Positions 17,611 through 53,345 of a stretch of DNA of 64,000 bases are shown here, one piece after another. Positions within the stretch are counted from its first letter, which is position 1; each line of letters starts with the position of its first letter. The notes beneath the pieces are model-generated. The model was not told the DNA's origin, made no database searches, and was given only the letters and a program-made list of their open reading frames with translations. The stretch lies in the NCBI GenBank assembly GCA_963793265.1, contig CAWBZI010000002.1, forward strand, positions 384,001-448,000. The letters run 5' to 3'. The stretch is from an uncultured cyanobacterium. Its GTDB lineage: Bacteria > Cyanobacteriota > Cyanobacteriia > Phormidesmidales > Phormidesmidaceae. Both the position numbers and the translations under genes were made by a program.

Positions 17611-18273
17611 ATGACCAGTTTCCCCGGATCTCCTCGGTTGTTAAAAGGCGCAATCGTCGGGCTTAGCAAAGTCGGCCCTCAGGCAAACGCCGTCGCCTTT
17701 CAGTACAATCCTGATACCATGACGCGATCGCTAAAGCCGCGCACAGCAACAGCCTCAGACGACGACAGCGATGGCCCTAGCCGCAAAGAAGCCTTCAGAA
17801 TTACCGGCCCACCTGAAGAAACCATTAGTCTCAAAATTGAGCTAGACGCCACCGACAGGCTCGAACAAGGAGATATAAACGCCCTTCAAAACGGCATACA
17901 TCCTCAGCTTGCAGCGCTAGAACTGCTGCTATATCCCAAATCAGAGACAGTGCTTAAAAATCAATCGCTGAGTAAAACAGGCACCTTAGAAGTAGTCCCC
18001 GTAGAGCTGCCGCTAGCGCTGTTGGTGTGGGGCGTGAAGCGAACAGTGCCCGTGCGATTAGAGAGTTTGAGCATAGAGGAACAGGCATACGATACCAACC
18101 TTAATCCAATCAGAGCCGTGATTGATCTGTCCTTGCGGGTGCTGAGCTACGCCGATCTTGAGTTTGATAGCAAAGGCGGATCGCTATTTATGGCGCATCA
18201 GGTACAAAAAGAGCGACTGGCCGCTTCAGCGGTTAGTAAAACAACGCTTCAGCGTGTTCAAGTAGGTCGCTAA
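17611..18273 (+). CDS. CIS tube-initiator-like protein (Afp7/Pvc7 N-terminal type)
   Basis: AFQYNPDTMTRSL, LLVWG..RTVPVRLESLSIEEQAYD..LNPIRA motifs; first gene of the baseplate operon. Confidence 0.75.
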   Translation: MTSFPGSPRLLKGAIVGLSKVGPQANAVAFQYNPDTMTRSLKPRTATASDDDSDGPSRKEAFRITGPPEETISLKIELDATDRLEQGDINALQNGIHPQLAALELLLYPKSETVLKNQSLSKTGTLEVVPVELPLALLVWGVKRTVPVRLESLSIEEQAYDTNLNPIRAVIDLSLRVLSYADLEFDSKGGSLFMAHQVQKERLAASAVSKTTLQRVQVGR

Positions 18274-18434
18274 TTAATGTATCTCCTCAAAGAGAAAGAA
18301 TCTTTTAGAGAAAATACAACATTTCAGCATAGCTATCCTCGAAAGCAACAGTATTCCTAATTAGGAAGAGAGGTTACTTTTCATACAAAAGTTCACTAAC
18401 GCCCAAAAAGCATTATTAAATCTTGAGGTTCTTT

Positions 18435-18785
18435 ATGTTTGATACTAGAAGCCGGTACTACAATTCGGCAGAAGCGACCTTTGAGCGACCAGCGCAGGCG
18501 AATGCAGGTATTGCCACGGTGACTAGAATTGCCTATAAGCGCAGACGGTTTTTGCCCCAGGGGCGATCGCTGCCTGTGCTCGCAGAAGTCAACGTTGCTG
18601 AAGGCGAACGGCTAGATCTGCTATCTCACCGACTGTTAGGCGATGCCGAGCAGTACTGGCAAATTTGCGATGCCAATGACACCATGAATCCAACTGCACT
18701 ATTGGGAAATACATCGCAGGGCGAACAGATTGAGCAAAGCGTGTTCGAGCGAGTTATTCGCGTTCCCTTGCCGCAGATAGTTTAA
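18435..18785 (+). CDS. CIS LysM-like small baseplate protein
   Basis: GERLDLLSHRLLGDAEQYWQICDAN (LysM/tail-X like); GAGG RBS before ATG 18435. Confidence 0.8.
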   Translation: MFDTRSRYYNSAEATFERPAQANAGIATVTRIAYKRRRFLPQGRSLPVLAEVNVAEGERLDLLSHRLLGDAEQYWQICDANDTMNPTALLGNTSQGEQIEQSVFERVIRVPLPQIV

Positions 18786-18805
18786 GAACCCAACAGAGAT
18801 CTACC

Positions 18806-19954
18806 ATGCCGCTTTCTTCAGGGCTACAGTTCACACTGCTCATGGGAGCAACAGTGCCAAGACCAGTGCCGATTGAGATTAGTCGGGCCTTTGTTGCTGC
18901 CGAAGTGACCCAGAGCGATCAGGGGCGCTCGGGCTTTCAGCTCACCTTCAGGGCCGGGCGGCAAGACGCCAGCGACCTGCGAGATTACGATCTGATTACA
19001 GAGCGGCTGCTTAAGCCCTTTAGCCGCGTGATATTAGTTGCGATTATAAACACCAAGCCAGAAGTTGTCATAGACGGCGTGATTACGCACCATCAGTTTA
19101 TGCCGAGCAATCAGCCGGGCAGCTCAAGGCTGACGGTAACGGGGGAAGATATCAGCGTCATGATGGACTTGGAGGAGAAAATTGTTGCCTATCCAGCACA
19201 GGCGGAAAGGGGAATCGCGATTAAAATTATTGCGGGCTATGCCAAATACGGCTTTATTCCCAAAGCAGTTCGGCCCAAAAATGACCTGCCCGCGCCCTCT
19301 ACCGAGCGCATTCCCGTACAGCACGGCACTGACCTGTCGCATTTACAACACTTAGCCGAGCGGCGTGGCTACGTGTTTTATGTAGAGCATGGGCCTGCGC
19401 CAGGATCGAATACGGCCTATTGGGGGCCCCCTAACCGGAAAGATGCACCGCAGCCTGCCCTCTCTTTTGATATGGGCACAAACACGAATGTAGAAGATAT
19501 TCGGTTTGAGTACAACGCACTGGCCGCGAGCACGACATCAGGGCATTTGCAAGATAGTCAAACAGCCCGAGTGAGCGATATTAGTGCGCTGCGAAGTACG
19601 AGAACACCTGCTTTAGTGAAAAGACCGGCCCTGAAAGCTCAGTCGCGGGTGAGACAGGTTTTACCGGTGCCGATTGCGGGGCTTAATCAGGCTCAGGCAA
19701 GGGCGATCGCACAGGGCATGACCGACCGCGCTAGCGATCAGGTCGTTACAGCCAAAGGTGAACTGCGGGTAACGCGCTACGGGCAGCTATTGAGGGCGCG
19801 GCGATTGGTCGGGCTTAGAGGCTGTGGCGATAGCTACGACGGCCTGTACTACGTTAAAAAGGTGTCGCACTTTATTCGGCTAGGAGAGTACCGGCAACAG
19901 TTTACGCTAACGCGGGAGGGGCTTGGGTCAACCTTGACGGCGGTGAGGCTTTAA
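18806..19954 (+). CDS. CIS baseplate hub (gp27/late control D-like, Afp8 N-half)
   Basis: Q.GTDL..L..LA.R.GY.FYV and GLYYVKKVSH motifs; lies before the spike gene. Confidence 0.8.
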   Translation: MPLSSGLQFTLLMGATVPRPVPIEISRAFVAAEVTQSDQGRSGFQLTFRAGRQDASDLRDYDLITERLLKPFSRVILVAIINTKPEVVIDGVITHHQFMPSNQPGSSRLTVTGEDISVMMDLEEKIVAYPAQAERGIAIKIIAGYAKYGFIPKAVRPKNDLPAPSTERIPVQHGTDLSHLQHLAERRGYVFYVEHGPAPGSNTAYWGPPNRKDAPQPALSFDMGTNTNVEDIRFEYNALAASTTSGHLQDSQTARVSDISALRSTRTPALVKRPALKAQSRVRQVLPVPIAGLNQAQARAIAQGMTDRASDQVVTAKGELRVTRYGQLLRARRLVGLRGCGDSYDGLYYVKKVSHFIRLGEYRQQFTLTREGLGSTLTAVRL

Positions 19955-19996: not shown

Positions 19997-20797
19997 ATGC
20001 GACAGTTTTTCGGTAAATATCGCGGACAGGTGACCAGCAGCAAAGACCCTAATTTTTTAGGTCGAATTCAGGTGAGCGTGCCTGCGGTGCTAGGTGAAAC
20101 TGAACAGAGCTGGGCGATGCCGTGCGTACCCTATGCCGGGAAAGATATTGGGCTGTTGATGGTGCCGCCTGTGGGCGCGAATATTTGGGTGGAGTTTGAA
20201 GGAGGCGACCCGGACTATCCGATTTGGAGCGGGTGCTTTTGGGGGAAAGGAGAGCTGCCGAAGAACGCGCAGGTTGAAGATGCTGCCGAGGTGCAGGTTT
20301 TTAGGACTGAGGGTGTGACGCTGACGGTAAGCCGCTTCAAGCAGTCTAAAGGGGTGAGTTTGGAGATTAATCAGCCGGTGGTAGAAAAGCCGATGAAGCT
20401 GGTGTTTGACGCGAACGGGATCGAGATTAATCATGATAACAAGACGACCGCTAAGTTCTTAGCCGACAGTATTGAGATTAAAACGGGCGATCGCTCAGCG
20501 ATGACCATTGCAACTGACAGCATTCAGCTTAAAGAAAAGAGCGTGGAGGTGAAGCTAACGGGTAATAGTATTGAATTAAAAAACTCGCCTTCGCAGGTGA
20601 AATTGAGCGCTTCAGCCGTTGAGATTGCGAATAGCTCGGCAAAAGTAAAAGTTGCCGCATCTGGAATTGAGCTGGCCAATGCCCCTGGTAAGGTGAAGGT
20701 TGCGCCAAGTGGAATTGATATCGGCATTGCGGCGGCAAGCGTGAAGCTGTCTCCGGTGAGTGTGAATGTAAATAACGGGGCTTTGGAGGTTATTTAA
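19997..20797 (+). CDS. CIS spike, VgrG/baseplate assembly protein V (gp5 OB-fold plus beta repeats)
   Basis: FFGKYRGQV...DP..LGRIQV.VP, PPVGANIWVEFEGGDPDYPIWSG; C-terminal beta-strand repeats. Confidence 0.9.
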   Translation: MRQFFGKYRGQVTSSKDPNFLGRIQVSVPAVLGETEQSWAMPCVPYAGKDIGLLMVPPVGANIWVEFEGGDPDYPIWSGCFWGKGELPKNAQVEDAAEVQVFRTEGVTLTVSRFKQSKGVSLEINQPVVEKPMKLVFDANGIEINHDNKTTAKFLADSIEIKTGDRSAMTIATDSIQLKEKSVEVKLTGNSIELKNSPSQVKLSASAVEIANSSAKVKVAASGIELANAPGKVKVAPSGIDIGIAAASVKLSPVSVNVNNGALEVI

Positions 20798-20802: not shown

Positions 20803-21123
20803 ATGGGATTTTTATTGACAGTCGGCTCACAGGTGATTTGTGCGCATGGCGGACAGGCTAAGCCGACCGTGCCGAATCCTCGGGTAAAGGTGATGGGTCA
20901 GCCAGTGGTGACGATGGGGCCTCCTTATGCTGTAGCAGGCTGTGCGAATCCACCGCCGCCTGTAAATGTTGGGCCTTGCATTATCGGTAACTGGGTGAAA
21001 GGCGCGGTTCGGGTGAAGGTGATGGGGTTGCCGGTGCTCTTGCAGGATGGGATTGCAATTTGTGTGCCAACGGGGACGCCGCTTTCTGTTGTACTTACGC
21101 AGCCGCGCGTGAAAGGGCTGTAA
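20803..21123 (+). CDS. PAAR-like spike tip protein (Afp10-like)
   Basis: 106 aa, CAHGG...GC...PC...C pattern directly after the spike gene. Confidence 0.75.
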   Translation: MGFLLTVGSQVICAHGGQAKPTVPNPRVKVMGQPVVTMGPPYAVAGCANPPPPVNVGPCIIGNWVKGAVRVKVMGLPVLLQDGIAICVPTGTPLSVVLTQPRVKGL

Positions 21124-21166: not shown

Positions 21167-21607
21167 ATGTTCAACACTCAGCAGCACAATACTGTTCAAA
21201 ATTTGGCCCATCCTTTTCGAGTAGACGGGCGCGGGAGAATTGCCGGGGCAGACCATGCTGCGCACATTCGGCAGCTTATAGAACAGGTGTTGTTTACGGC
21301 TCCGGGCGAGCGGGTGAATCGGCCTGAGTTTGGCAGCGGCGTGCGGCAGCTTATTTTTTCGCCTAATAGCGAAGAGCTAGCAGCAGCGTCTCAGTTTTTA
21401 GTGCAGGGCTCTTTAGAGCAGTGGCTAGGCGATCTGATTCAGGTAGAAGACGTTGAGATTTTTAACCGTGACGCTGAGCTAGTCGTGACGGTACGGTATC
21501 TCATCAGGCGCTCTCAAGAACAGCGAAACGACAGCTTTTCATCGGGTGCGATTTCTGGTGCGGGCGTGGCGCTAGAAGGGCCGCTGTTTGGCGGGGTGGG
21601 GCTATGA
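21167..21607 (+). CDS. GPW/gp25 family baseplate protein (Afp9-like)
   Basis: LFTAPGERVNRPEFGSG motif. Confidence 0.9.
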   Translation: MFNTQQHNTVQNLAHPFRVDGRGRIAGADHAAHIRQLIEQVLFTAPGERVNRPEFGSGVRQLIFSPNSEELAAASQFLVQGSLEQWLGDLIQVEDVEIFNRDAELVVTVRYLIRRSQEQRNDSFSSGAISGAGVALEGPLFGGVGL

Positions 21608-24165
21608 GAGACGTGCAGTATGCCGATCGGCAGGCGAGCAGACGGGCGGCAGTGCGATCGCTGCGGTTGCCCAACGGCCAGCCCCGACTCAACGGCATTG
21701 ACTACATAGAAGTCGGTGAAGATCCGCGCACGCTCTGCGTTCGTTTCATTCATCCGCTCACTAGCACCTTGTCTGGCACCTTAGCTGGTGAGACGGGTTT
21801 AAACACCAACAATGTGCAAATTATTGGCGGCGAACGGCTCGCGCAAATTGAGGTAGTGTCACTCACGCAGTTTGATCAGCAGCTTACCGTGCGCGTTGAT
21901 CGAAGAGGAGATTTTTCGACATATCGGCTGAAACTGGTGCGATCGCCCGCCGACCCGTCCAATCCACCCATCGGCATCGACCCCCAGCTTGCTGAAGTAG
22001 ACTTCTCTTTTTGGGCAGAGGGCAGCAACGTCAACAGCAGCCACGATCAAACCACGCTGGCCCAGGTACCGCCACCGCCACCCGTCATTGATTATCTAGC
22101 AAAAGACTACGCTAGCTTTCGCCAGCTCATGCTCGACCGGCTCGCGGTCACATTGCCCAAATGGCAAGAGCGAAATCCTGCCGATGTTGGGCTATTGCTA
22201 GTAGAACTCATGGCCTATCGGGGCGATCAGCTCAGCTATTTTCAAGACGCAGTTGCAACAGAAGCCTATTTGGGCACAGCCCGCAGGCGAATTTCAGTGC
22301 GCCGCCATGCGCGACTGCTAGACTACGCTATGCACGATGGCTGTAATGCACGAGTCTGGGTGACGTTTCAGGTGTCTAGGCCGCTAGTTTTACCAGGGCC
22401 AGAGGAAGGAACAGAAGAGAACGGCGGCGGTAGCGTATTGCTCACAAAGGTGTCAATGATGCCGCTGTCTGTTTTGCGCAGTGAAGACGAGCTTTTGACC
22501 GCGCTTTCTAGTGGGGCGCAGGTGTTTGAAACCATGCACTCAGCTAGGCTCCATCCAGCCTTGAACAACCTTCACTTCTACACCTGGGGCAACGAGCACT
22601 GCGTTTTACCAGCGGGCACTACTCAGGCAACTTTTGTCGATACAGGCGGATGTATTCAGCCTTTGTTGCAGCCAGGACAGGTTTTGATTTTAGCGCAGCG
22701 GATTAGTCCGATTACGGGGTTGGAGAGTGACGCGGATTTAATCTGTCGCCATCCCATCAGACTCACCGCCGTCAGCCCCACCGAAGATCCGCTTTTCCCC
22801 GAAGCTGGCGCTAACAGTGATGATCCAAACGCCCCCCGACAGCGCCTGATTACCGTTCACTGGGCCGAAGCAGACGCGCTGCCGTTTAGTCTCACGCTCT
22901 CCACTCAAGTTCAGGGAAAGCCCGTCAACAACATCAGTATTGCATGGGGCAACTGCGTACTCGCTGACCATGGCCGTACGCTAAACGCCGAGAATCTCTC
23001 CTACTTAGACCCAAATTCAGCCCGGCCCTATCGACCTCGGCTACAGTTTGGGCCGCTTTCACAGCAGGGCTATGTGCTCAACGAAACAGAGCGCCGGTGG
23101 CAACCGTTCGACGCTCAAGCGCCCGCTAAATCTGCGCTAGCGTGGGAAATCAGGAACGCCCGGCCCAGCATTAGGTTGCAGCCCAAAGAACAAGCAAGAG
23201 GGCAGACAGAAGGATCGCAGGCTATGCGCTGGCAGCCGCAAAGAGACTTGTTGAAAAGCGGGCCGTTCGCGCTGGACTTTGTACCAGAGACTGAAGACAA
23301 TGGCGCGGTATATTTGCGCTTTGGTGACGATGTATTAGGCAGAAGGCCCACACAGCAGCTTCAGGCAGTCTATAGAATTGGAAACGGTCGCGCTGGAAAC
23401 GTTGGGGCGCTTTCTATTGCACATGTGTATTTACCGGAAGACGCAGGCTCGAACAGCTCAGTAGAACAGATTATTACAGCCGTCACGAACCCTTTAGCCG
23501 CCGTTGGAGGCATTGATCCTGAACCGATTGAAGACGTAAAGCTATACGCGCCTCAAGCCTTTCGGACACCGCAACGCGCCGTCACCACAGACGACTATGA
23601 AAAGTTTGCACAGCAGTACCCAGGCGTACAGCGGGCTTTGGCCACACGGCGCTGGACGGGAAGCTGGCACACCTTATACATCACGGTCGATCGAGAGAAT
23701 GGTCTACCGGTAGATGGAGAGTTTGAAGCCGATCTGTTGGACTTTTTGGAGCCGATGCGGCTAGCGGGGCATGACTTAAAAATTGAGAATCCGCAGTTTG
23801 TTCCTTTGGATATAGCGCTACGAGTGACGGTAAAACCCGACTACTTTAGCGATGAAGTCGAAGCCGTTCTAGCGCGAGCGTTTAGCCATGGGGTGCTGAG
23901 TAACGGCGAGCGAGGATTCTTTCATCCCGACAATTTCACCTTTGGTCAGCCGGTTTACCTGAGCCAGATTATAGCAGCAGCGCTACAGGTAACCGGCGTG
24001 CAGTCGGTTCAGGCCACCCGGTTTCAGCGATGGGAGCGGGCGGCGCAGCAGGCGCTAGAGTCTGGACAGATTGTGTTGGATCGGCTAGAGATTGCAAAGC
24101 TGAACAACGATCCTAGTGCGATGGAACAGGGGCGGCTGACGTTTGAGATGGAGGGCGGGCTATGA
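21604..24165 (+). CDS. Baseplate J-like wedge protein (Afp11-like) 1
   Basis: DYLAKDYASFRQLM, EAYLGTARRRISV, YRIGNG..GNVG, RAVTTDDY. Confidence 0.9.
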   Translation: MRDVQYADRQASRRAAVRSLRLPNGQPRLNGIDYIEVGEDPRTLCVRFIHPLTSTLSGTLAGETGLNTNNVQIIGGERLAQIEVVSLTQFDQQLTVRVDRRGDFSTYRLKLVRSPADPSNPPIGIDPQLAEVDFSFWAEGSNVNSSHDQTTLAQVPPPPPVIDYLAKDYASFRQLMLDRLAVTLPKWQERNPADVGLLLVELMAYRGDQLSYFQDAVATEAYLGTARRRISVRRHARLLDYAMHDGCNARVWVTFQVSRPLVLPGPEEGTEENGGGSVLLTKVSMMPLSVLRSEDELLTALSSGAQVFETMHSARLHPALNNLHFYTWGNEHCVLPAGTTQATFVDTGGCIQPLLQPGQVLILAQRISPITGLESDADLICRHPIRLTAVSPTEDPLFPEAGANSDDPNAPRQRLITVHWAEADALPFSLTLSTQVQGKPVNNISIAWGNCVLADHGRTLNAENLSYLDPNSARPYRPRLQFGPLSQQGYVLNETERRWQPFDAQAPAKSALAWEIRNARPSIRLQPKEQARGQTEGSQAMRWQPQRDLLKSGPFALDFVPETEDNGAVYLRFGDDVLGRRPTQQLQAVYRIGNGRAGNVGALSIAHVYLPEDAGSNSSVEQIITAVTNPLAAVGGIDPEPIEDVKLYAPQAFRTPQRAVTTDDYEKFAQQYPGVQRALATRRWTGSWHTLYITVDRENGLPVDGEFEADLLDFLEPMRLAGHDLKIENPQFVPLDIALRVTVKPDYFSDEVEAVLARAFSHGVLSNGERGFFHPDNFTFGQPVYLSQIIAAALQVTGVQSVQATRFQRWERAAQQALESGQIVLDRLEIAKLNNDPSAMEQGRLTFEMEGGL

Positions 24166-27100
24166 CAGCATTCGATGGCGGTATTAGAGAAGTATCGCGG
24201 CCCTACAATCGGCCTGGCTTAGATGAACTCTCCTATCGGGTAGGAGACTATCATCGCTTTCGGCAAAAGCTGGTATCGGCGCTTTCTCAGCCGGTGCTGC
24301 CAGGCGGGCCTAGCTTGGCGACACTAACGACAAGATCGAGTGATGACGGGGCGATCGCACTCCTTGACGCCTGGTCAATTATGGCCGACGTGCTCACCTT
24401 TTACCAGGAGAGAATTGCCAACGAAGGCTTTCTCAACACGGCCACCGAGCGGCTGTCTGTACTAGAGCTAGCGCGCTCAATTGGCTACGAGCTGAAGCCA
24501 GGGGTTGCGGCCAGCACTTTTTTAAGCTTTGAAGTAGAGGCGATCGCACTCGAAGTCGATCCCACTATTGTTATTCCGACCGGCACTCAGGTAGAGAGCG
24601 TACCCGGTGAAGACGAGCTGCCCCAGCTATTTGAGACAGTCACCGAGATAGTAGCGCGGCCTGAGTGGAATGCGATCGCCCCTCGCCCGACTCGTCCCCA
24701 GTCGATCACTGACCAGGCAACAGAACTACGGCTCAACGGCACTGATACGCAGCTACAGTCGGGAGACTGGGTGCTGCTGATAGACGAACACGCCCCTGAC
24801 CACTGGCAGCTTTTGCCTATAAGCGAGGTCGTGGCCGATAGAGCAGACAGTCAAACCCTGATTCGCTGGACACAGCCGCCTATCAGCAATTCAACAGAAC
24901 AGCGCTCCTCTCGGCTATATAGTCAGCCGCAGGTGTGGGCCTTTCGCCAAAGCGCACGTTTGTTTGGATCTGAAGCGCCTCAGTGGCAGAGTTTGCCTGG
25001 TGAAACCAAGCGAGCGGCTTTAGAAGCAGCGGCTCAAAATAATGCTGAAGAAGGCGATCACGTCCCAGTCCTTCACAGCGGTGTCTTTAGCTCAACAGAT
25101 GACGGTGAAACCTGGCAGGCGTTGAGTACAGGACTACCCGACAAAGACATTTTCAGCTTAGCTGCACTCGACGATGGCACATTATTAGCTGCAACAGCAG
25201 GCTCCGGTATTTTCAGACGGCGGCGTGGGGATGTGGCTTGGCAACCAGCGAGTGCCGGGCTCGATCAGCTCACGGTGCTGACACTGACTGTAGAGGGCGC
25301 AGGCGAAGATGCCACTATTTACGCAGGTACCGGCGGTGGTGGGCTTTATCGCTCTAAGGATGGGGGCGATACGTGGGTAGGCATTCATACGGGCCGGATT
25401 CGGGTAGAAAGTACAGGAGGTAACGAGTGGGCTTCGGTAAACAACAGTTTGCCAAGCACGGTTGTGAGAGCGGTGGGTACGGTTAGTTTTGCAAGCTCGA
25501 CCTACACTTTAGCGGGAACAGATAACGGGCTATATTTCTGTAAAGAGATAGATTTGGAAAGGACTTGGCAGCGAATACCAGCGTCAGCAGGCTTTGTTAT
25601 AAAGGCGTTTCAGCACAACACTGCTAGCGGACAGCCGGGCGCTGTGATTGCGTCTGATAGAGGAGTTTATGAGGTACTTCATACGACCTCTGGTGAAATT
25701 CCGCTGGGGCTAAGGTTATCGATAGCAGAGTTCGAGGAGCCTGCGCAGACCTTTTGGGCGGGCGACCGCGAGCTAATTGCTGGAACACCCACCGGAATTT
25801 CAGTATATAGAGGTTGGCAAGAGCCAAGAGAGGATCGGGGCGGCGTAGAGCGAAGGCAGAGCGTGGAAGATCGCCGCAGCGGAAAGGATAGACGGCTGAG
25901 TATAAAAAGGCGGCTTCGCGGGCGAAAATTGCTGTCTGGGCAAAGAAGGCTGAGTGTAAGAAGAAAGGTTAGTGAAAGGAGACAAATTAGTAGAGAAAGG
26001 CGGGTCGGTGGAGAAAGACGGTTTGAAGAGCGGCGTGAGTTTCAGGGTCAGCGATCGCAACACTTCCCACTAGACACATCAGTCCAAGCTTTAGTTAGCA
26101 CTCCTAGCAACCTTCTTGCTGCAACGCCCAAAGGCATATTTGCTTTGAAGGAGAGAGGCACCAACTGGCAGTTCGATCAGCCTGTGAAGTTACCAGTAGA
26201 CACGCTCACGCTAGTCACTGCCAGCGATGGAACAATCTACAGCGGTAGTCGCTTTATAGAACCCGCCACCGACGCGCTAAACCCTATTAGCGCAGAATCG
26301 GCTGGTGTAGAAAATGCCGCCTCTTCGGCAAGACAGACACAGCTAAACCAGGCGAAAAGAGCGCCGTCGAACTGGCCCGGATTCAATCTTAAAACGGCCC
26401 GTCGGATAGACCTTGACACGCTCTATCCCCAGGTTATCTCACCGAGCTGGCTAGCTTTAATTGACACGGTGGATGAAGAGGTAAAGGGAGAAATTGCTGC
26501 CGTCACCGCTGCGCAATCTACCCCCCGAAAAGACTTCGGCCTAGATACTCAAATCACTCGCCTAACACTCTCCTCAGCGCTAGAAAACCCAGCGCAGTTT
26601 AGCCTTAGGAATACACAAGTTTTAGCCCAAAGCGAACAGATTGAGCTGGCCCTAGAGCCTTTAACCGTAGCAGCTCAGCAGCACAAAATCTTTCAAGATC
26701 CGCTGCGAGGGAAACAGATTTTCCTAAGCCGGTACGTCGCGCATTTACAGCCACAGCAGTCGGTTTTAATTAGGGGTAAGCACTTACGAGCAGAGGTGGT
26801 TTCGGTAGGGGGCGTTTTCTCAGCGCGATCGCCTCAACCTGATCAGTTCGATACGGCTCCATGGAACGCTCAAAACACAGGGCTGACCACAACAAACATT
26901 CGCGCTTTGGCGATCGCACCAAACCAACAGCAGATCTATGCAGGCACAGATGAAGGAATTTTTGTAGCAAGCTTACCCACAACAGAATCGTCTTTCGGGC
27001 TCACCTGGCGACCGCTCAATCAAGGGCTGCTAAATAAATCGGTGCAGTGCTTGGTTATACAAGAAAACGGCAGCATCTATGCAGGAACATCAGACGGCAT

Positions 27101-40192: not shown

Positions 40193-40439
40193 TCAAATCC
40201 GTATAAATTGACTGCGCGATCGCCCGCCCCACTTCCTCAGCCCTCAACCCCTCCTGCAATACCAAATCCGCAGGCACCTTCGCAATCCGCCCGCCCTGCC
40301 GCAAAGCATCCGGCACCCCATGCACCGCCATCAACCGCGACAGCTCCGCCTCGAAAGCCGCCCGCAACCGAGGCCGCTCATTTCTTGGTACCTTCACGCC
40401 CGAAAGCGCCAAACTATCAATGTGTAAATGCAGCGTCAT
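40167..40439 (-). CDS. Small CIS-associated protein
   Basis: LHIDSLALSG...A.EAEL.RL...GRAIAQSIY; overlaps the ATPase stop, a usual position in CIS loci. Confidence 0.7.
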   Translation of the reverse strand: MTLHLHIDSLALSGVKVPRNERPRLRAAFEAELSRLMAVHGVPDALRQGGRIAKVPADLVLQEGLRAEEVGRAIAQSIYTDLNVGETANG

Positions 40440-45369: not shown

Positions 45370-46127
45370 TCTCCGGCCCGATCAACTCGATCTAAATAAA
45401 ACTGTCGTCGCACGCCGCTCATCGCTAAAATATCCGACTCTCGCCAGCCATAGAAGCGAGCCAGTATATGCACTTCTTGCAAAAGCTGCTTCGCCAGGTT
45501 AGTCAGCTCCGCCCAAAAGAAAGAGACAATATCAAACAAACTTTGCCAGCTATGGTCACAGTCCGGGCAAACCAAAGGCATCAACACCTCTGCCTGCGGA
45601 TCGTGTTCTATCATTTGTTCACTAATCTGCATCCGCACCGATCCTGGCAGCGCCTCTATATCCACCGCTTCTCCCTTATATTGGGCTGCTACCAAACAGC
45701 GAGAAAGCAGCTGAGCAGATGATGCTGCAATATCACTTACAGGGGCGATCGCGCCCAAATCATAGCTATTCGGCAGCCGAAACTTAATCTGATAGTCCTC
45801 CTGAACAAAGTCATACACCGCTGCTGTTCCTTCTTCAGCCAGCTCAACAACAGGCTTAGAAAACTGAATATCAGCCACCGACAGCCCAAACTCTAGCTGA
45901 CACTGACACTCGGGGCAGCTTGTCATGCTGTTGAGCTTAGGGCCAAACGTCAGCGATCGCAACTGCAACAGCCCCGCATCCCGCTGCCCCACACTCAGCT
46001 CAGCAAGCTGCACATCACTCCCCTGCGGATAGGCCACACGCAGTAGCAGCAAAGCCTGTTCTAAAGGATGCCGCCGCTTCCCCTGCTCCCAAACGGATAA
46101 AATTTGAGCCGCCGAAAGCTTGCGCAT
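45366..46127 (-). CDS. CIS tail-assembly chaperone / T4 gp26-like protein
   Basis: CPEC and CPDC pairs, FRLPN, EVHILARFYGWRESDILAM. Confidence 0.75.
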   Translation of the reverse strand: MRKLSAAQILSVWEQGKRRHPLEQALLLLRVAYPQGSDVQLAELSVGQRDAGLLQLRSLTFGPKLNSMTSCPECQCQLEFGLSVADIQFSKPVVELAEEGTAAVYDFVQEDYQIKFRLPNSYDLGAIAPVSDIAASSAQLLSRCLVAAQYKGEAVDIEALPGSVRMQISEQMIEHDPQAEVLMPLVCPDCDHSWQSLFDIVSFFWAELTNLAKQLLQEVHILARFYGWRESDILAMSGVRRQFYLDRVDRAGE

Positions 46128-46169
46128 ACAGGATAAGCCCTATGTAGATTGGTTCTAACGCCTTCTCTT

Positions 46170-46700
46170 CTATGCCGGTTCTAAAAACGAAGGCTCCCCA
46201 GGCTCAGCCATATCATAATCTCGCTCCCAGCCCTCATTTTGCAGCGTAATCATCTGGATCGCGACCGCATTCGCATTCGCATCCAGCTCAGGCATCGCCG
46301 TAAATTCCGACACCCAGCAGCGATAGACCTTGTACGAAATCGCCACCTGCCCCGCCTCATTCATCAGCTCGATAATAATGTCTTTGCGAAAGTCTTTTAG
46401 CGACACCTCAGCCCCTAAGCCCGAGCCATAGTTCCACACCTTATTGGCCCACTGCTCAAAATCTCTATCGTGCGTCACCCCGCGCTCCAAAGAGATCGCA
46501 TCATACTTAGTCGGCCCCGGCGAATTACGCTTACTGCTCGGATCGCCTCCTTCTCTATGCTCAATTACCTCAGTCGTTCGCTTCAGCGCCCCCACCTTAC
46601 TTATTCCGGCCACATAGCGACCATCCCACTTCACGCGAAACTTAAAATTCTTATACGGATCAAAACGCTGCGCGTTAACAACAAACTGAGGAGCAGGCAT
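46170..46700 (-). CDS. CIS tail tube protein (T4 gp19-like, Afp1/5)
   Basis: DPYKNFKFRVKWDG, EHREGG, ISLERGVT, RKDIIIEL.NEAG. Confidence 0.95.
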   Translation of the reverse strand: MPAPQFVVNAQRFDPYKNFKFRVKWDGRYVAGISKVGALKRTTEVIEHREGGDPSSKRNSPGPTKYDAISLERGVTHDRDFEQWANKVWNYGSGLGAEVSLKDFRKDIIIELMNEAGQVAISYKVYRCWVSEFTAMPELDANANAVAIQMITLQNEGWERDYDMAEPGEPSFLEPA

Positions 46701-46751
46701 ATTTGAAAATTCTCCAAGATGTAAAAACGATGAATGGTCTAAATTCGATCC

Positions 46752-48314
46752 CTAAGTCGCAATCTCACCCGCAATCTGCTGAAACTTCAAGATCACAAAC
46801 TCCGCAGGCTTCAGCGGCGCATACCCCACAACAATATTCACAATCCCCTGATTAATATCATTCTGCGTCGTCGTCTCCTTATCGCACTTCACAAAGTAAG
46901 CATCTTTAGCCGCCGTTCCCTGAAAAGCACCCTGCCGGAAAAGATTGTTCATAAACGCACCTACGTTCAATCGAATCTGAGCCCAAAGCGGCTCATCATT
47001 CGGCTCAAACACCACCCACTGCGTCCCCCGATACAAACTCTCTTCCAAATACAGCGCCAGCCGCCGCACCGGAATATACTTCCACTCAGAAGCAAGCTGA
47101 TCGTTGCCCTGCAACGTGCGCGCGCCCCATACCACCCGGCCAGCCGCCGGGAAGGCCCGCAAACAGTTAACCCCCAGCGGATTAAGCTGTCCGTTTTCAT
47201 CATCAGTCAGCGGCACGCTAAAGCCCGTTACGCCGTTCAGCGTCGCATCCAAACCAGCAGGCGCTTTCCACACGCCACGCTGCGCATCAGTGCGGGCCAT
47301 CACCCCAGCGATCACACCACAGGGCGCAAACGTTCCCATCTGATTTTCTCTCAGCGCATCCGGCTTTCGCAGCCGAGGAAAGAACACCGCTGCATTCTTG
47401 CTGTTCGTACCCAAAGCACCTGCGCCATCTCTAGCTAATGCAACCGATGTCCAGCTCGAAGGTGGATCAACAATCATCATCGCCCGCCGTTTCTCACAGT
47501 AGGCGGCAGCAGTAGTCACCAGCGGCGACTCAACATCATCACCAGCGTAAGGGGGAATACAAAGTAGATTGAACAGATCGGCTTTTTCAAGCGCAAACAG
47601 TCCTGTCTTTGCGCCCTCTTTGCCCGTACCAGTAAAGTCATTGGTATCAATGCTATCACCGTCTGCGCCAGGCGTTGTCACTGGGCTGCTGGCCGCATCG
47701 TCAGTCCAAATCGTGCTGCTAGCGCCTTCACTGTGTTCATCCGGTCGATTATCACCTGTGTTATCGATTCCGCGTACTAACATAGAACTGTTTTGCAGCA
47801 CAGCATCCACCTGTCGAGCACTGTCTTTTGTTGAGACGTTCTGAAAGGTTTCTGTTACACCTGTTTTGGTATCACGTATTGTCAGGTTAAAAAGATCACC
47901 ATCGTCTAGCCCGTAACGCTCTGCGAGCCCAGGCATGTCAACATGGCTAATGCGCGCGCGTAGGCTGTTTCCCCAAGCCCCAGCAGCAGCAGCGTTCAAA
48001 GCCAGCCCATTAGCATTTAAAGAGGCGGTAGAATTCTCGCCCGTTTTCTCATGAAACACTCTTACTATCACGGCCTGCCCGCCGCCGTTCAAGAAAAAGT
48101 CTTGCACCGCGTAGCCGAGATTGCTCTTACGCCATAGTCCACCAAAAATACGTTCAAAGTCGCCGTAGTTGTTGATAGTAACGGGCTCATCAGTAGGGCC
48201 GCGCAGCGCTCTGCCGATAAAGGCCGTAATCGAAGTAGCTACCCCTGAGATGGTTCTAACGCCGCTGGGCAGCTCTTCTACATAAACACCAGGATAGGTT
48301 GGAGCAGTTGGCAT
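46752..48314 (-). CDS. CIS tail sheath protein (Afp2/3/4-like)
   Basis: PGVYVEE, RGVWKAPAG, VWGARTL, VFEPNDEPLW, APLKPAEFV. Confidence 0.95.
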   Translation of the reverse strand: MPTAPTYPGVYVEELPSGVRTISGVATSITAFIGRALRGPTDEPVTINNYGDFERIFGGLWRKSNLGYAVQDFFLNGGGQAVIVRVFHEKTGENSTASLNANGLALNAAAAGAWGNSLRARISHVDMPGLAERYGLDDGDLFNLTIRDTKTGVTETFQNVSTKDSARQVDAVLQNSSMLVRGIDNTGDNRPDEHSEGASSTIWTDDAASSPVTTPGADGDSIDTNDFTGTGKEGAKTGLFALEKADLFNLLCIPPYAGDDVESPLVTTAAAYCEKRRAMMIVDPPSSWTSVALARDGAGALGTNSKNAAVFFPRLRKPDALRENQMGTFAPCGVIAGVMARTDAQRGVWKAPAGLDATLNGVTGFSVPLTDDENGQLNPLGVNCLRAFPAAGRVVWGARTLQGNDQLASEWKYIPVRRLALYLEESLYRGTQWVVFEPNDEPLWAQIRLNVGAFMNNLFRQGAFQGTAAKDAYFVKCDKETTTQNDINQGIVNIVVGYAPLKPAEFVILKFQQIAGEIAT

Positions 48315-48577
48315 AAAAGTGTCCTCAAAATTAGCAGTTTATTTACAAGGTTCAAATCAAAATGTAGTCAAGGTTGACTGATACCGAACCATCTCAGCTA
48401 TGGCAGCGGTAGTCGCACCGACGAGTTAATATTTTAGAACAACGTCTGATCTACAACAATCTAAACGGCGATCGCACCTTCGCATACAAGCATTCTCAAA
48501 ATTGTTGGAAAACATAACAGAACTAAACGAGTAGGTATTGAAAGCAATAGTCATAAAAAAGCAGGCGTTGTATTCAT

Positions 48578-51500
48578 TTAAGGTTGAGATTCAATTATTT
48601 GCGGCTCTGTTTGTGACTCTGAGGGAACATCAGGACGCTGTGCTAAGCCAAATACTACGGCAATCACTAGGGCGATCGCTAAAAATCCCCACGCCCACAG
48701 CGGCAACCTGCCTTGGCCTTCTCTACGCTCTTGAGCAAACGGAGCGCGTTCGGAAACAGCCGCTGTCGCAGGTGGTTGAGGTTCAGTGACTAAAGTCTGT
48801 ACAGGTCTTGTAGGCTCAGATGCCACAGGTTCAGGGGAAATAGGTTCAGGCGTAGCTGATATAGGCACAACAGGTTCTGGCGATGGCGACCCGTTACCAG
48901 AATTAGACTTGCCCAAACCCGTGCCAACAACAGCAATTGTAAGAGCGGCAAGTCCGATCGGATTGGTGAAGTACTCTAGATGGTTGCAGGCAACCGGCAG
49001 ATGAATAGGCGCAGGCGATCGCCCCTCTGGCACCGCAGTAATACTCTCTACCAACACCGCAATATCATTAGGCTGTCTAAAAAACGGCAGCTCAGCCACT
49101 TTCCCCAATCTACCGAGTAACCGCTGCTTCAAACCCGCCGTTTTATCCTCTGGAATCAAAGACGTATTCCCTACTACCAGCGTATAGGGCACCTTTGGAT
49201 CTTTCGCCTTCGCCAGCTCCGCCAGAAAGTCCGACCCCGGCTGCATCTGATCGAGTGACACATCGATTGTCTCAATCCGCTTCAGCAATCCCTCTAAAAT
49301 TTTCAGCGGCGCAGCCACCAAAGAGAGCCCGTTAATTGCAAAGCTCACGGCGGCAGTAATTCCCGCCTGCATCTGCGGCCATGGCGATCCGTTGTTAGGC
49401 GTTCCTAACATAATTAAATGGTTCACCACCTCACTACCGCCCTCCTGTTCAATAAACCACCGAGACACCAGTCCGCCCATTGAATGCGCAACAATATGTA
49501 CCGTCTTCTGATGGCCTACGCCTAGTCCGACCGCCTCTAGCCGCGCTTTTAGCAATCGGGCGTTGGTGTCAATCGTTGTATTCAAGTTCTCATAGTCAAA
49601 AGCTAGCACCAAATCATACAACTGTCCGATTGGCGTCTTGCTATCTTCTAACGTCGCCACCGCTGACTCCAAACTTGGCAGCATACTTTCTGTATCACCA
49701 AAAATCCCGTGGATATAGATAGCAATATTTTGGGCTTTCGCTACCTTCTCTCTTATCGTTTCAACCGTTCTCTCGTAGTTAACTTTAGCATCTTTCAACT
49801 CTGCAACTGTCAGTAACGGATACTCAAACGACAGGCCAATTGTCTTACTCAGGCTCTCTCCTAGTTTCTTAGTCGCCACCTTTTGAAAAAAGATGCGAAT
49901 AGAACCTGTTACGCTACGTCTACCTTCACTCACGGGCTCAGGAAGTCGCTCAATAACAATCTGAGTTTTCCCCTCTGTTGTTTTGCCATAGCCCAGCGGC
50001 AGGTAGAACTCACCATCGTAGGCAACTGGCAAAATATATTCACCTTCATTCAAAGGCACTTCTGTTTCTATTCGCAGCGGATTCTCAGGCGTGACTGCGG
50101 CTGAATCGCTGACGTTGTTGAGTTCCAGAGCGCTGAGGCCAGGGTCGCTCGCGCGGCTTTGCGCAAATTGAAAAGGCACTGTCTCATTTTGTAAAATTGG
50201 TGGCAAAATTGCGCTACCCAAATCGCGAGTAGACTGTGAGACTGTTGTAAGCCGGACATTTGCACTGAACCGAGAATGCGGCTGAATTTGAACGGTGCTG
50301 TTAACAACAGTAGGTTCAGACTGGCTAATTGGCGTCGATAGCTGAGGGCGCACGAAGGTGAACGCAACTTGGCTGGTCACCCAGTCATCGTAAGCTGTGG
50401 TGTCTTCAGCAAAGCCAATGTCTCGCGTATTGACCCGCTGCATTAGGCGGTTGAGGCTACCGGCAGCAGGCAGCGATCGCATCCCACCCCCACTCGCAGG
50501 CTGTCCCAACTCATCTAACGACATCAAAGTCGGATCGAACTCATCCGTACAGGCGATCGCCTTCAAAATATCCTGACTTTCCGTAATCCCCTGCTGCCAC
50601 AGCACATCTTTAATCGTGCCGTTCAGCGGAGCCCCATTGGCAAACCAGATCTCTTGTTCAGGCAGCAGCCGCGTCAAGCTCACCACGCTATCCGGCTTTA
50701 GCACTACCGCGTTAAAGCGTTCAGTCAAATAAAACAGCGCACAGTAGAGCGTTCTATCACTCGTATTTCGCAGCTTGAGCCGAAAGCGCGGCGGTGTCCA
50801 CGTATCTTGCAAGCGGTTGTGCCGGTAGCTCAAGCGAATCTGAGCGTCTGTTATCTCTGTCGCCTCTTCGTAACTAGGCTCATCACCCGAATAGATCTTG
50901 ATTTCAACCGCGCCTTGAATCTGACTGCTCGCTGGACTTGCCAAATCCGCAATTGTCTTCCAGCGCGCAATATGTTCTAAGTCTTTCACGACTTTTGTCA
51001 CATTCACCGTGTCGTAGCCCGCAACAGCAGTCACCAGCGGACGCTGCTCGGCAACAGAGGTGATCGTATACTCATCGCCCTTTGCCACGACTCGATAGCT
51101 TGCACCTTCTATCTGATCGGTTGCTTGCACATAGAGCGAAGGTCGGTTGCCGGGAGCAGCGATCGTGATCGCCTGTCGTAACATCTCAACCCCCGCCGCC
51201 TCACCTTCTATAAAAATGCTAAGCGGCGGTAGCGGTGATGAAACAACAACTGCTTTAAAAGTCTCCGTAGTCTCAGCAGTCTGAGAAATTACCCCACTAC
51301 CCTCTCTATCCACAATCTGACTGTATTGAGGCAGTACCCGAGTGATATTTACTAAACCTAATGCATTTGAAAAGTCTTTAAGCTGCTCGGCTTGGCTGTC
51401 AAAAGGGAAGAGCGCAAGTACCGTCGATTCCTCACCGACTGCTGATCGGAGGCCGTGAATCGCACCGCCGTCTATTGCCCAGCCATGGTCAGGATGACGA

Positions 51501-52414
51501 CTAGCTGTAAAGTAGGGGTCGCAGGGCGCGATCGCCCCACCTAAAAACGGCATCTCCAAATCTTGCGAATGCGTCGCATCCATCTGCGGAGACTGCGCCA
51601 TTACGCCGCTACGAATCAGCGCATTGGTTCGCTTAAACAAATCTCGATAGCTGAGCTGACCATTCGCTTTATTCAAAGAATCTTGTAAAAAGTAAGAGAA
51701 TGCACCCCGAGCCTTACCGCCACCGTGGTACTCCTTTGCCTCTTCAATATTTTGGCAGGCCGCAAGCACCACATGTCGCCCCGTTGGTGGCAGCTTAATC
51801 GCCATCGGAGACAGGCTCCGGGTTCCCACAGATTCGCCTACCAACGCCTGCGCCGCATCAGCTGACACAATAAAACTCTCTAAAGGGCGCAGGCGCTTGT
51901 CAATCTCCGCTCGGCGCGTCGCCACCTCAGACACCTCTCCCTCGCGCGTACCCGATCCCGAATGGCAGCAGTCCAGCAGCACCGCAATATGCGGCTCATG
52001 ACTATCCACTTCAGAGATAAGCTGAGCCAGCTCTTTATCAGCCAAATCCCAGTGCTGATCGTCTATACGGCTGTCGTAGCACACCAGCGTTTCCATCATG
52101 CGATCGGGCGACACCGGCCAAAAAGGCTCTGGTGCGATCGCCTGTGCCCCATGTCCCGCATAGTAAAACAGCACCACATCGTCCTTACCCGCCAGCGCCA
52201 AATGCTGCCGAAACCCGTCAATAATGCCTTGCCGAGTCGCGCGACTGTCAGTCAGCATCTTCAGCTTCAGCTCAAAATCCTTCTGAGAGACGCGACCCTC
52301 TAAATAAGCCTGCATTCCGCTCACGTCATTCACACACCCTTTTAGCCAGGGAACGCGCGATCGCTTGTCATATTCATTAATGCCCACCAGAAGCGCATAC
52401 AGTTTTTTAGACAT
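48578..52414 (-). CDS. Caspase-family (peptidase C14) protease fused to an alpha/beta hydrolase and a C-terminal TM helix
   Basis: ALLVGINEY, FYYAGHG, LLDCCHSG (His-Cys dyad); later HGIFG, AHSMGGL, GTPNNGS; Pro-rich linker and WAWGFLAIALVIAVVFGL. Confidence 0.88.
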   Translation of the reverse strand: MSKKLYALLVGINEYDKRSRVPWLKGCVNDVSGMQAYLEGRVSQKDFELKLKMLTDSRATRQGIIDGFRQHLALAGKDDVVLFYYAGHGAQAIAPEPFWPVSPDRMMETLVCYDSRIDDQHWDLADKELAQLISEVDSHEPHIAVLLDCCHSGSGTREGEVSEVATRRAEIDKRLRPLESFIVSADAAQALVGESVGTRSLSPMAIKLPPTGRHVVLAACQNIEEAKEYHGGGKARGAFSYFLQDSLNKANGQLSYRDLFKRTNALIRSGVMAQSPQMDATHSQDLEMPFLGGAIAPCDPYFTASRHPDHGWAIDGGAIHGLRSAVGEESTVLALFPFDSQAEQLKDFSNALGLVNITRVLPQYSQIVDREGSGVISQTAETTETFKAVVVSSPLPPLSIFIEGEAAGVEMLRQAITIAAPGNRPSLYVQATDQIEGASYRVVAKGDEYTITSVAEQRPLVTAVAGYDTVNVTKVVKDLEHIARWKTIADLASPASSQIQGAVEIKIYSGDEPSYEEATEITDAQIRLSYRHNRLQDTWTPPRFRLKLRNTSDRTLYCALFYLTERFNAVVLKPDSVVSLTRLLPEQEIWFANGAPLNGTIKDVLWQQGITESQDILKAIACTDEFDPTLMSLDELGQPASGGGMRSLPAAGSLNRLMQRVNTRDIGFAEDTTAYDDWVTSQVAFTFVRPQLSTPISQSEPTVVNSTVQIQPHSRFSANVRLTTVSQSTRDLGSAILPPILQNETVPFQFAQSRASDPGLSALELNNVSDSAAVTPENPLRIETEVPLNEGEYILPVAYDGEFYLPLGYGKTTEGKTQIVIERLPEPVSEGRRSVTGSIRIFFQKVATKKLGESLSKTIGLSFEYPLLTVAELKDAKVNYERTVETIREKVAKAQNIAIYIHGIFGDTESMLPSLESAVATLEDSKTPIGQLYDLVLAFDYENLNTTIDTNARLLKARLEAVGLGVGHQKTVHIVAHSMGGLVSRWFIEQEGGSEVVNHLIMLGTPNNGSPWPQMQAGITAAVSFAINGLSLVAAPLKILEGLLKRIETIDVSLDQMQPGSDFLAELAKAKDPKVPYTLVVGNTSLIPEDKTAGLKQRLLGRLGKVAELPFFRQPNDIAVLVESITAVPEGRSPAPIHLPVACNHLEYFTNPIGLAALTIAVVGTGLGKSNSGNGSPSPEPVVPISATPEPISPEPVASEPTRPVQTLVTEPQPPATAAVSERAPFAQERREGQGRLPLWAWGFLAIALVIAVVFGLAQRPDVPSESQTEPQIIESQP

Positions 52415-52460
52415 AGCTAATCAACAAAGAGAGAGTCATATTATCTCAGACGCAGAAGTC

Positions 52461-53345
52461 CTAAGCATTACTTGCCGTCAGCAGCAGCGGCAGCGTATCT
52501 TCATCCACCACGCCGCTCACATTCACGCCTGCTTTCTCCTGAAACGCTTTCACCGCCCTCTCAGTGTCTATGCCAAACACGCCATCTACATCCACCGCAA
52601 CGCCCGCCTTCACTAGCATCGCCTGCACCTCCTCAACTCTCTGACCCTGCATATACGGCGACACCAGCTTCAAATATCCCGTATCAGACGGCGTAAACGT
52701 CGGCGCAGCCACATTCGGCCCAAGCTGAAAACGCACGTGAATATGATCGTCATGCCCCGCATGGTACTGCACGCCTTTAACATTGCCGTCGTTAAATAAA
52801 ATCACGCGAGGGGGCAGCACCGGATTGTTGGTAATTAGGCTTATAAACGCCTGCGTCAGCTCGCGCGAGTAGTTCCCGGCTCGCCAGTTAGAAGGCTCTT
52901 CTCTGCCATTATTCGTCACCAGGCTAAAATCCACATCGACGCCCTCCTCATGAGACGCATGACGCGGCGTATCTCCCCCATTTGGCAAGCTAATATCGCC
53001 TACCCCAATACGCGGCGCGTTGGGATGCTTTTTAGCCCACTGCTCGCAGATATGGACGATCGCTTGAATCGTGCTAGACCGTCCGTAGTGATGCTGACCG
53101 TCATTGTCGTAGCCGTAACACTCATAGCCAGGCCCGTCAAAAGGCAGCTTCGTAAACAGCGCCCGACTATCGCTATTGAGAATTTCTAGCTCAGACTCGG
53201 TAAATTGAACATCCGCAGTACAGGTGATGCCATGCTGATGTTCCTGCCTAGAGGCGGCAGCAGCTAGGCTTCGAGGAGACAACTTTTGTTTGATAGCGTT
53301 CACGACGTTCCCCTTAAGTTTGATCTCAAGTCGTGCAAACATCAT
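52461..53345 (-). CDS. MepA-like murein endopeptidase with C-terminal peptidoglycan-binding domain
   Basis: GDISL.NGG...HASHEEGVDVD...HDDHIHV zinc ligands; VDGVFG..TERAVKAFQ PG-binding repeat. Confidence 0.85.
   Translation of the reverse strand: MMFARLEIKLKGNVVNAIKQKLSPRSLAAAASRQEHQHGITCTADVQFTESELEILNSDSRALFTKLPFDGPGYECYGYDNDGQHHYGRSSTIQAIVHICEQWAKKHPNAPRIGVGDISLPNGGDTPRHASHEEGVDVDFSLVTNNGREEPSNWRAGNYSRELTQAFISLITNNPVLPPRVILFNDGNVKGVQYHAGHDDHIHVRFQLGPNVAAPTFTPSDTGYLKLVSPYMQGQRVEEVQAMLVKAGVAVDVDGVFGIDTERAVKAFQEKAGVNVSGVVDEDTLPLLLTASNA

Follow-up and report, generated by a model that had tools for sequence, protein, structure and literature searches.

A window of 64,000 nt from an uncultured cyanobacterium (positions 384,001-448,000 of CAWBZI010000002.1, assembly GCA_963793265.1) carries, in two convergent operons, what is very probably an intact IIa-type contractile injection system (CIS). 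Its subtype, gene set and DUF6519 fibre are already known and the decoration is the new part: the real distinction of the locus is the hydrophobic hairpin, propellers, long spike and linked membrane-protein gene of one cyanobacterial branch. These traits suggest that the branch is built to sit on the membrane of the producing cell, a second, independent tethering route. By analogy with the thylakoid CIS (tCIS) of Anabaena, whose Cis12 has a putative amphipathic helix (PMC8894136), we tentatively propose, with somewhat less than even confidence, that the particle is anchored to its producer's own membrane by the hairpin. Family assignments came from a Pfam profile scan of the open reading frames (ORFs) of the window, with TIGR, PHROG and PDB sequence searches added; relatives were the best 80 of 459 stretches matching the hairpin-bearing protein in a genome collection, and the class sample comprised 401 genomes of the same class as the host.

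The hairpin lies in the Tail_P2_I-like wedge protein (Afp12-like, 1409 aa; 29402..33631, + strand), hereafter the I-like protein, whose match to Tail_P2_I itself is weak (E 0.006, below the cut-off). Relative to undecorated forms, this protein has two main insertions, at about aa 640-735 and 867-1317, and its layout runs from an N-terminal wedge domain through a beta-helix-like repeat, the hairpin and a propeller with two phage-fibre-like inserts to a conserved C-terminus. The hairpin region of ~95 residues contains an acidic patch, then a hydrophobic helix and then an amphipathic helix, and the helical hairpin itself, at aa 659-719 (31376..31558, +), is a candidate re-entrant membrane anchor. 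An AlphaFold model of aa 540-1409, built from 49 sequences (predicted local distance difference test, pLDDT, 83), showed a propeller and a core of strand repeats, and placed the hairpin at aa 659-719 as a helix-loop-helix of two long helices and a short loop; this alignment-based model replaced a single-sequence fold of the hairpin region with pLDDT 38. A single membrane crossing is unlikely, because both ends of the hairpin return to the same domain, and we infer a re-entrant arrangement within one leaflet.

A profile of the insertion alone matched cyanobacterial loci only. Among the best 80 loci the hairpin was present in 11, all cyanobacterial, and in none of the 69 others, five of which are cut before or at the site. 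The host loop, 4-20 aa in most undecorated proteins parsed, is expanded to about 100-120 aa in the long forms of cyanobacteria; loop lengths could be parsed for about half of the proteins, and the hairpin counts were taken from a hidden Markov model (HMM) of the insertion instead. Eight other proteins have unrelated strand-rich inserts at the hairpin position. A less biased count used the class sample, where DUF6519 is present in 42 of the 401 genomes: the DNA upstream of DUF6519 was taken from 37 of these 42 (39 regions), with this genome, G016, G201 and two matches below threshold excluded. Hairpin and Asp-box propeller repeats occurred together in 13 of the 37 readable loci and neither occurred in the other 24, and 10 of the 13 hairpin-positive loci lie outside the HMM training set. 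In 20 of 24 distinct proteins, no 18-mer of the entire chain was more hydrophobic than the hairpin window; three of the four exceptions are windows that lie off helix 1. The acidic patch precedes the hairpin in 22 of the 24.

Divergent from afp7, a gene at 16840..17364 (- strand) encodes a single-pass membrane protein of 174 aa, whose transmembrane (TM) segment has a Kyte-Doolittle (KD) hydropathy of 2.97. Its homologs were found in the cluster in all 10 decorated loci with fetched flanks, mostly right before afp7, and by genome position the gene was linked in 12 of the 13 decorated class-sample loci, the 13th being cut by a contig end; it was linked in 0/24 undecorated class-sample loci, a count that may miss links, since these loci often lie on short contigs. 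The linked proteins are only 16-31% identical between loci. The window copy matched no Pfam family, and no Pfam family occurred in more than one of ten members; the Atlas places the family in unnamed cyanobacterial clusters, and one match of the family search is not listed. The 174-aa protein is a candidate membrane partner, a CIS-linked copy of an unnamed cyanobacterial family. By description, it can be likened to CisA of Streptomyces coelicolor (PMC12237407) and to Hbor_38620 of Halogeometricum borinquense (PMC11566945), the latter with six predicted TM helices versus one here. A predicted complex between the membrane protein and the domain that bears the hairpin scored 0.05, with the fold of the partner uncertain, and was counted neither way. 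A second, unlinked copy lies elsewhere in this genome (G000:C5:93723-94124), flanked by a glycosyltransferase-like gene and by one of 531 aa. The family also adjoins ATPase, Pvc16, sheath or DUF4157 genes outside decorated clusters, at L204 (G429:C1:486093-489657), which looks like a different CIS type, at L195 (G393:C1:1306618) and L182 (G221:C13), and by position at G316:C3 and G341:C1.

The decorated loci form one lineage. The baseplate protein J1 (Afp11a, 853 aa; 21604..24165, +), which is undecorated and carries none of the decoration traits, was used as the tree marker. In a FastTree tree of 85 rows, the decorated loci made up one side of a branch (17/85, local support 100), as they did in an IQ-TREE tree of 50 rows (15/50, Shimodaira-Hasegawa-like approximate likelihood ratio test 99), for which 35 rows were dropped, among them five basal long branches and near-copies; four decorated class-sample loci without a whole J1 in the DNA used stand outside the trees. 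Under midpoint rooting the decorated branch is all cyanobacterial, spans several families and is nested among non-cyanobacterial forms, and undecorated cyanobacterial loci are placed elsewhere, even within the same genus. Cultured relatives with the decoration include Drouetiella hepatica, Alkalinema pantanalense, Floridaenema flaviceps, Cyanomargarita calcarea and Nostoc sp. WHI. The spike (Afp8b, gp5-like OB fold and repeats; 19997..20797, +; Pfam Phage_base_V) measures 266 aa in the window, some 100 aa more than its undecorated counterparts. It spans 266-270 aa in 10 of the 13 decorated loci, against 179 aa or less in 66 of the 70 undecorated ones, and the three short spikes of decorated loci accompany short J2 proteins. 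With the rise that we assume for T4 gp5, the longer spike would amount to about 5-6 nm. Three decorated loci (L153:5874-6308, L156:3819-4217 and L162:3977-4495) have a conserved unnamed gene of 132-172 aa directly upstream of the sheath, which was not seen in the window.

The baseplate protein J2 (Afp11b, 1747 aa; 24162..29405, +) consists of a ~900-aa core and, as mapped against undecorated forms, two propeller-repeat insertions at about aa 300-720 and 885-1290. These insertions match Reg_prop, Sortilin-Vps10 and F510_1955, with sequence matches to the sensor propellers 3v9f and 3ott, and appear to carry the same propeller repeats as the I-like protein. In the latter, the beta-propeller at aa 867-1317 (32000..33352, +) reached a VIA Z of about 29 to WD40/GH74 propellers, and a small domain inserted in it (the second insert, PHROG 1980) matches phage tail-fibre N-termini. 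The fold searches were dominated by the propeller, with the beta-helix-like part and the hairpin barely probed, and no solved CIS chain was among the matches listed. The propellers are read as putative non-catalytic binding modules, because only structural residues are conserved in the I-like propeller (9 sequences, 8 of about 23 homologs given); as enzymes they were set aside, no charged residue being conserved at 80% in these 9 sequences, which is a weak test. The sequence-only reading had described a heavily decorated baseplate; the decoration is real (1747 and 1409 aa), and that reading had seen it as length alone and not as hairpin and propellers.

An Arg-rich loop in the J2 propeller region (25824..26057, +) holds 26 Arg in 78 aa, with nine [D/E/Q/K]RR units. 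It is private to this genome, the nearest relative having about 9 residues versus 73 here, and it was rejected as a trait of the branch, being absent from all kin scored and from that relative; its codons vary, which argues against a fresh DNA duplication. The Arg-rich peptide of Cle binds cyclic di-GMP (c-di-GMP) through DRR-x11-(R/K)RxxD with flanking tyrosines (PMC7382256). The J2 loop, as read from its sequence, resembles this peptide and has DRR/ERR units and four RxxxR, with neither the exact motif nor the tyrosines. It is very doubtful that such a loop, placed on the baseplate, would let the trigger also sense nucleotides (c-di-GMP) or nucleic acids.

As in the known families, the tube and sheath would polymerise on a baseplate of hub, spike and wedges and be capped by Pvc16, the AAA+ ATPase would load the DUF4157 cargo, and sheath contraction would drive the spike; a role of the ATPase in cargo loading is described for AlgoCIS (10.64898/2026.05.27.728243). 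In our case, each of the six wedges would push a hydrophobic and amphipathic hairpin into one leaflet of the thylakoid or cytoplasmic membrane, and the 174-aa protein would help or position the hairpins. The propellers and the DUF6519 fibre could form a target-side crown of non-catalytic binding modules, which the longer spike would clear. On contact, the nuclease-like cargo would be injected into a neighbouring microbe, probably after cell lysis, as in the ghost cells of Anabaena.

Several observations weigh against an anchor of this kind. The hairpin has pLDDT 58-76 in the alignment-based model, and helix 1 is short, borderline as a TM segment (KD 1.8) and could pack against another subunit. 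In the locus L016 the hairpin is present and the propeller of the I-like protein is absent, together with a short J2 and a long spike. The decoration traits arose once, and their co-occurrence is a single event, not many tests. The link of the membrane gene to the decoration is also softened by the short contigs of many undecorated loci. The membrane family occurs in 133 of the 401 class genomes, many without any CIS, and its CIS-linked copies form no single supported clade; as a CIS-exclusive gene it was therefore rejected. The best PDB match of the tube is Anabaena Cis1, a weak one (E 4e-15), and a free particle would suit a fibre of the S74 type that lacks a TM segment.

The fibre leads to the first alternative, possible if on balance unlikely, in which the system is a free extracellular CIS released by lysis, the propellers and the fibre attach to the target, the hairpin packs against another subunit of the baseplate or grips the target membrane on docking, and the membrane gene is carried along or acts in release. 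The fibre gene (33644..36250, +) encodes an N-terminal DUF6519 anchor (E 3.5e-38), repeats and an S74 chaperone (Peptidase_S74), without a TM segment (no 19-mer with KD >= 1.6). DUF6519 is the published eBAP5 anchor, which goes with Tail_P2_I and is catalogued as a receptor-binding fibre (PMC12923769). The propellers resemble glycan-handling GH74 and sensor domains, and the membrane family is common without a CIS. On the other hand, an exposed 18-mer with the highest hydrophobicity of its protein in 20 of 24 cases would be awkward for a soluble particle, and the membrane gene is kept linked across proteins as divergent as noted above. In Roseiflexus (subtype IId) an intracellular CIS can also float free (PMC12998442).

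The assignment to subtype IIa is one of gene content, with the best PDB sheath match as a proxy in place of the dbeCIS Afp11 tree. The extracellular CIS (eCIS) superfamily is defined by an afp1/5 tube and an afp11 baseplate J with sheath, Afp7, 8, 9, 15 and 16 in one cluster, and this content was found by Pfam and TIGR. Subtype IIa is described as having two afp11, a split afp8, PAAR, divergent afp12/afp13 and no afp14; two afp11 copies and the split afp8 characterise IIa and IIc, which are separated by the presence of afp12/afp13 (PMC6899500). In the window, both J1 and J2 are Baseplate_J proteins above the cut-off of TIGR02243, and the split afp8 corresponds to separate genes for the gp5-like spike and a gp27-like hub (Afp8a; 18806..19954, +; Pfam Phage_GPD). 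The PAAR-like tip (Afp10; 20803..21123, +) was recognised from weak Pfam matches (PAAR/DUF4280) and its conserved position in kin. The Tail_P2_I-like and DUF6519 genes follow J2 in that order, as in eBAP5, and we equate them with afp12/13 by position and published descriptions. No match to afp6 or afp14 was obtained in the Pfam, TIGR and PHROG scans, in which no dedicated profile was searched, and a 553-aa protein of the sheath operon could be a ruler. The sequence-only reading had taken one sheath, one tube and the split Afp7 and Afp8 as signs of a new variant, and had listed the two J genes and DUF6519 fibre; the former are standard traits of the subtype or common to the kin loci, and the latter are the published signature of IIa and eBAP5. 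The locus also shares extra subtype genes with these types, whose J2 and I-like proteins typically have about 800-1100 and 700-950 aa (1747 and 1409 aa here); the propellers, hairpin, longer spike and linked membrane gene are without mention in the descriptions of PMC6899500 and PMC12923769.

Among characterised systems, H. borinquense's type VI secretion system (T6SS) is closest by its sheath (9EZM, E 2e-79). It is of clade IIa, with two cis11, works membrane-bound, and its Cis12/Cis13 are proposed as feet (PMC11566945); it has no cis6/14/19, resembles our locus in its DUF4157 cargo and in an upstream linked membrane gene, and differs in its archaeal envelope, its toxin-immunity pairs and the lack of an atomic baseplate for comparison. 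The Anabaena PCC 7120 tCIS (7B5H/7B5I) is likewise cyanobacterial and has a DUF4157 cargo, extra crown and cage domains and a baseplate extension with the putative amphipathic helix of Cis12 at the thylakoid (PMC8894136). However, its sheath is more distant (7B5H, E 9e-41), its fibre Cis13 bears a C-terminal TM anchor that is missing here, phmmer searches of J2, the I-like protein and J1 against PDB returned no 7B5H chain, and our fibre matched none of the Anabaena tCIS chains and no PDB sequence at all. As regards the Anabaena crown protein Cis19, eBAP5 has partial similarity to the crown anchor (PMC12923769). The earlier claim of a variant unlike the characterised Anabaena tCIS is upheld in that the locus is distinct from the tCIS, and is weakened in that two relatives, those of H. 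borinquense and Streptomyces davawensis, have already been characterised.

The second-best sheath match (8BKY, E 2e-77) is the CIS of S. coelicolor (IId; 8BKY/9GTP), which also gave the best PDB match for both J proteins. Its wedge consists of two Cis11 and one Cis12, and it needs a cluster-linked single-pass membrane protein, CisA (PMC12237407); it differs in having one afp11 gene and no fibre, and CisA has 468 aa with an outer C-terminal domain. Streptomyces davawensis has a DUF6519-type cluster whose DUF4157 endonuclease cargo acts on the producer (PMC11126660). Its cargo Tme, with a nuclease C-terminus, is a very large TM/coiled-coil protein encoded upstream of the baseplate genes, whereas only a 448-aa cargo is found here; the kin G027 and G034 have an ORF of 1715-1731 aa at the place of Tme. 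Both systems are precedents for a further explanation, quite unlikely in our judgement, that this CIS is directed against its own producer: the 174-aa protein, as an analogue of CisA, would recruit it to the cell's own membrane, the CIS would fire under stress, and the cargo would kill the cell or release DNA for mat or filament development. The near-equal sheath matches of 8BKY and 9EZM and the lack of an immunity gene after the cargo fit with it. The fibre and the three propeller insertions point instead to an outside target, the S. coelicolor CIS being without a fibre, and the cargo C-termini vary between kin, as in competition systems.

The DUF4157 cargo gene lies at 38846..40192 (-; Pfam eCIS_core). 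Its C-terminal domain (aa 215-448) represents an unnamed family with 33 relatives among the representatives, and 13 of the 29 scanned also carry eCIS_core; it had no Pfam or PDB match. The family has invariant HH-x-x-P and G-x5-R-x-DDP motifs, which we take to resemble those of HNH/His-Me nucleases, and the Atlas returned nuclease clusters at 0.75-0.78, under its 0.9 mark. Because of the invariant His-His and Arg-x-Asp-Asp-Pro motifs and these low Atlas scores, our best guess is a putative nuclease toxin. A published pattern joins DUF4157 at the N-terminus to a toxin at the C-terminus, often with no immunity (PMC8213781), and downstream of the cargo there is no co-oriented immunity gene, the next gene being a convergent Uma2 gene 44 bp away. 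This putative endonuclease (38184..38801, +; Pfam), with 19 tblastn matches in the genome, and the neighbouring DUF900 alpha/beta hydrolase (36302..38077, +; Pfam), which has two TM segments, a paralog on C6 and no BLAST match in the other loci searched, were rejected as fixed parts and are probably passengers. Among validated CIS toxins, EAT9 of Moorea is catalogued as a restriction endonuclease that lies near DUF4157 (PMC8213781).

The baseplate operon begins with the tube initiator (Afp7 N-half; 17611..18273, +; Pfam CIS_tube) and a LysM-like/Tail_X small wedge protein (Afp7 C-half; 18423..18785, +), recognised from a weak Phage_tail_X match (E 3e-5), a weak PHROG match and its conserved position; the gp25-like sheath initiator (Afp9; 21167..21607, +; Pfam gp25) precedes J1. 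The sheath operon, on the minus strand, comprises the sheath (Afp2; 46752..48314; Pfam and PDB search), the inner tube (Afp1; 46170..46700; Pfam T4_gp19), a T4 gp26/gp51-like assembly protein (45366..46127; Pfam T4_baseplate and PHROG), the low-complexity 553-aa protein (43708..45369), the cap or terminator (Afp16; 42410..43711; Pfam Pvc16_N), the AAA+ ATPase (Afp15; 40436..42409; Pfam AAA) and a conserved 90-aa subtype gene (40167..40439) with homologs at the same place in kin. The 553-aa protein has a conserved C-terminal motif and measures 294-1150 aa in kin, and by position alone it is a candidate ruler or linker; its gene sits after the chaperone, where phage tape measures sit. The genes at 43708-45369 and 40167-40439 were left off the earlier list and belong to the cluster, and the cluster as a whole, previously placed at 17611-53345, starts 770 bp further left, at 16840-17364, and probably ends at the sheath start, 48314; the genes listed within that extent are present. 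The sequence-only reading of a complete gene set with open frames was otherwise borne out: all named ORFs are open at their positions, and the order of the baseplate operon, for which a synteny check had been suggested, recurs across the best 80 of 459 matching loci, so that the gene set is far beyond chance. The structural genes and the DUF4157 gene are single-copy in a genome-wide search. Scans of 46000-54000 for promoters and terminators remained at chance level, and no NtcA or LexA consensus pattern was found in six intergenic stretches.

That the locus is silent or decaying is extremely improbable. The sheath operon is inverted relative to kin loci and there is one small cargo gene only; yet all frames are open, the structural genes abut or overlap (gaps of -26 to 51 bp, and 149 bp after afp7), and the Walker A and B motifs of the ATPase are intact. 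Some other CIS clusters, L133 and L155 (G224) and L143 (G240), have split J1 or ATPase genes and are probably decaying or affected by sequence errors.

Upstream of the sheath, a caspase-like protease with an alpha/beta hydrolase and a C-terminal TM segment (48578..52414, -; His-Cys dyad intact) and a MepA-like endopeptidase (52461..53345, -; Pfam Peptidase_M74 and PG_binding, a peptidoglycan-binding domain) had been counted as a trait of the variant. This did not hold, as the pair recurs at 57-64% identity in G026 and G066 with no CIS genes within 20 kb, G066 being without both DUF6519 and Pvc16_N, and it was rejected as a fixed part of the CIS; it is a separate module, perhaps recruited for lysis. 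It is highly improbable that the system is a T6SS-like device shooting through the envelope of its own cell while MepA opens the wall and the caspase processes components. In favour, the pair lies 263 bp upstream of the sheath in the same orientation, in G194 a MepA and a caspase likewise come after the CIS ATPase, DUF6519 is present in four of six other genomes that have this MepA, and IIa works as a T6SS in haloarchaea (PMC11566945); however, of the 10 decorated loci whose flanks were fetched, one alone has the pair next to the CIS, its closest counterparts are the CIS-free ones above, caspase paralogs lie elsewhere in this genome, and no lipoprotein or trans-envelope gene was recognised in the Pfam and TIGR scans. 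One of these paralogs, at G000:C2:131635-138105, is split into ORFs of 195 and 1027 aa, followed by three genes, the last with a peptidoglycan-binding domain, and then by genes of 747 and 1374 aa.

Pvc16_N is present in 167 of the 401 class genomes, i.e. CIS genes occur in about 40% of cyanobacterial genomes, and in the literature found the Anabaena tCIS is the sole CIS studied in cyanobacteria. No published account was found of a IIa system in cyanobacteria, of wedge proteins with propellers or of such a hairpin, and the supplementary locus tables and baseplate models of PMC12923769 and PMC6899500 may include members of the branch; a subtype IIa baseplate or DUF6519 fibre had no PDB sequence match. 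Anchoring by the hairpin, if true, would mean that anchoring originated a second time within one phylum, and would assign a function to a common membrane-protein family so far uncharacterised; if false, the locus would still be the first description found of propeller-bearing CIS wedge proteins. The branch offers a sharp and inexpensive test of the switch between the free and the membrane-anchored mode of a CIS, by one ~95-residue insertion and one small gene. A bolder version, unlikely but worth stating, is that cyanobacteria invented thylakoid-anchored injection twice, here by taking a IIa machine from other bacteria and adding their own six-hairpin anchor, a propeller crown, a longer spike and a recruited membrane-protein dock. 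The membrane family could even be the thylakoid partner left open by the tCIS paper (PMC8894136), because it also adjoins other CIS-like genes (L204, L195, L182).

Many Pvc16_N ORFs of 420-450 aa were seen in the class sample, several per genome and some accompanied by ATPase and DUF4157 genes only (L195); such groups are perhaps stand-alone cargo-loading cassettes. Elsewhere in the window, a nonribosomal peptide synthetase at 7364-15024 (-) is encoded by two ORFs in different frames, 65 bp apart, which reflect a natural split or a frameshift: the first contains adenylation (A), thiolation (T), condensation, A and methyltransferase domains, and the second the rest of the A domain, a T domain and a reductase. 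An IS5-like transposase fragment lies beside a truncated response regulator at 1481-2702, and a cluster for xanthine dehydrogenase, purine permease and adenine deaminase occupies 55586-63626.

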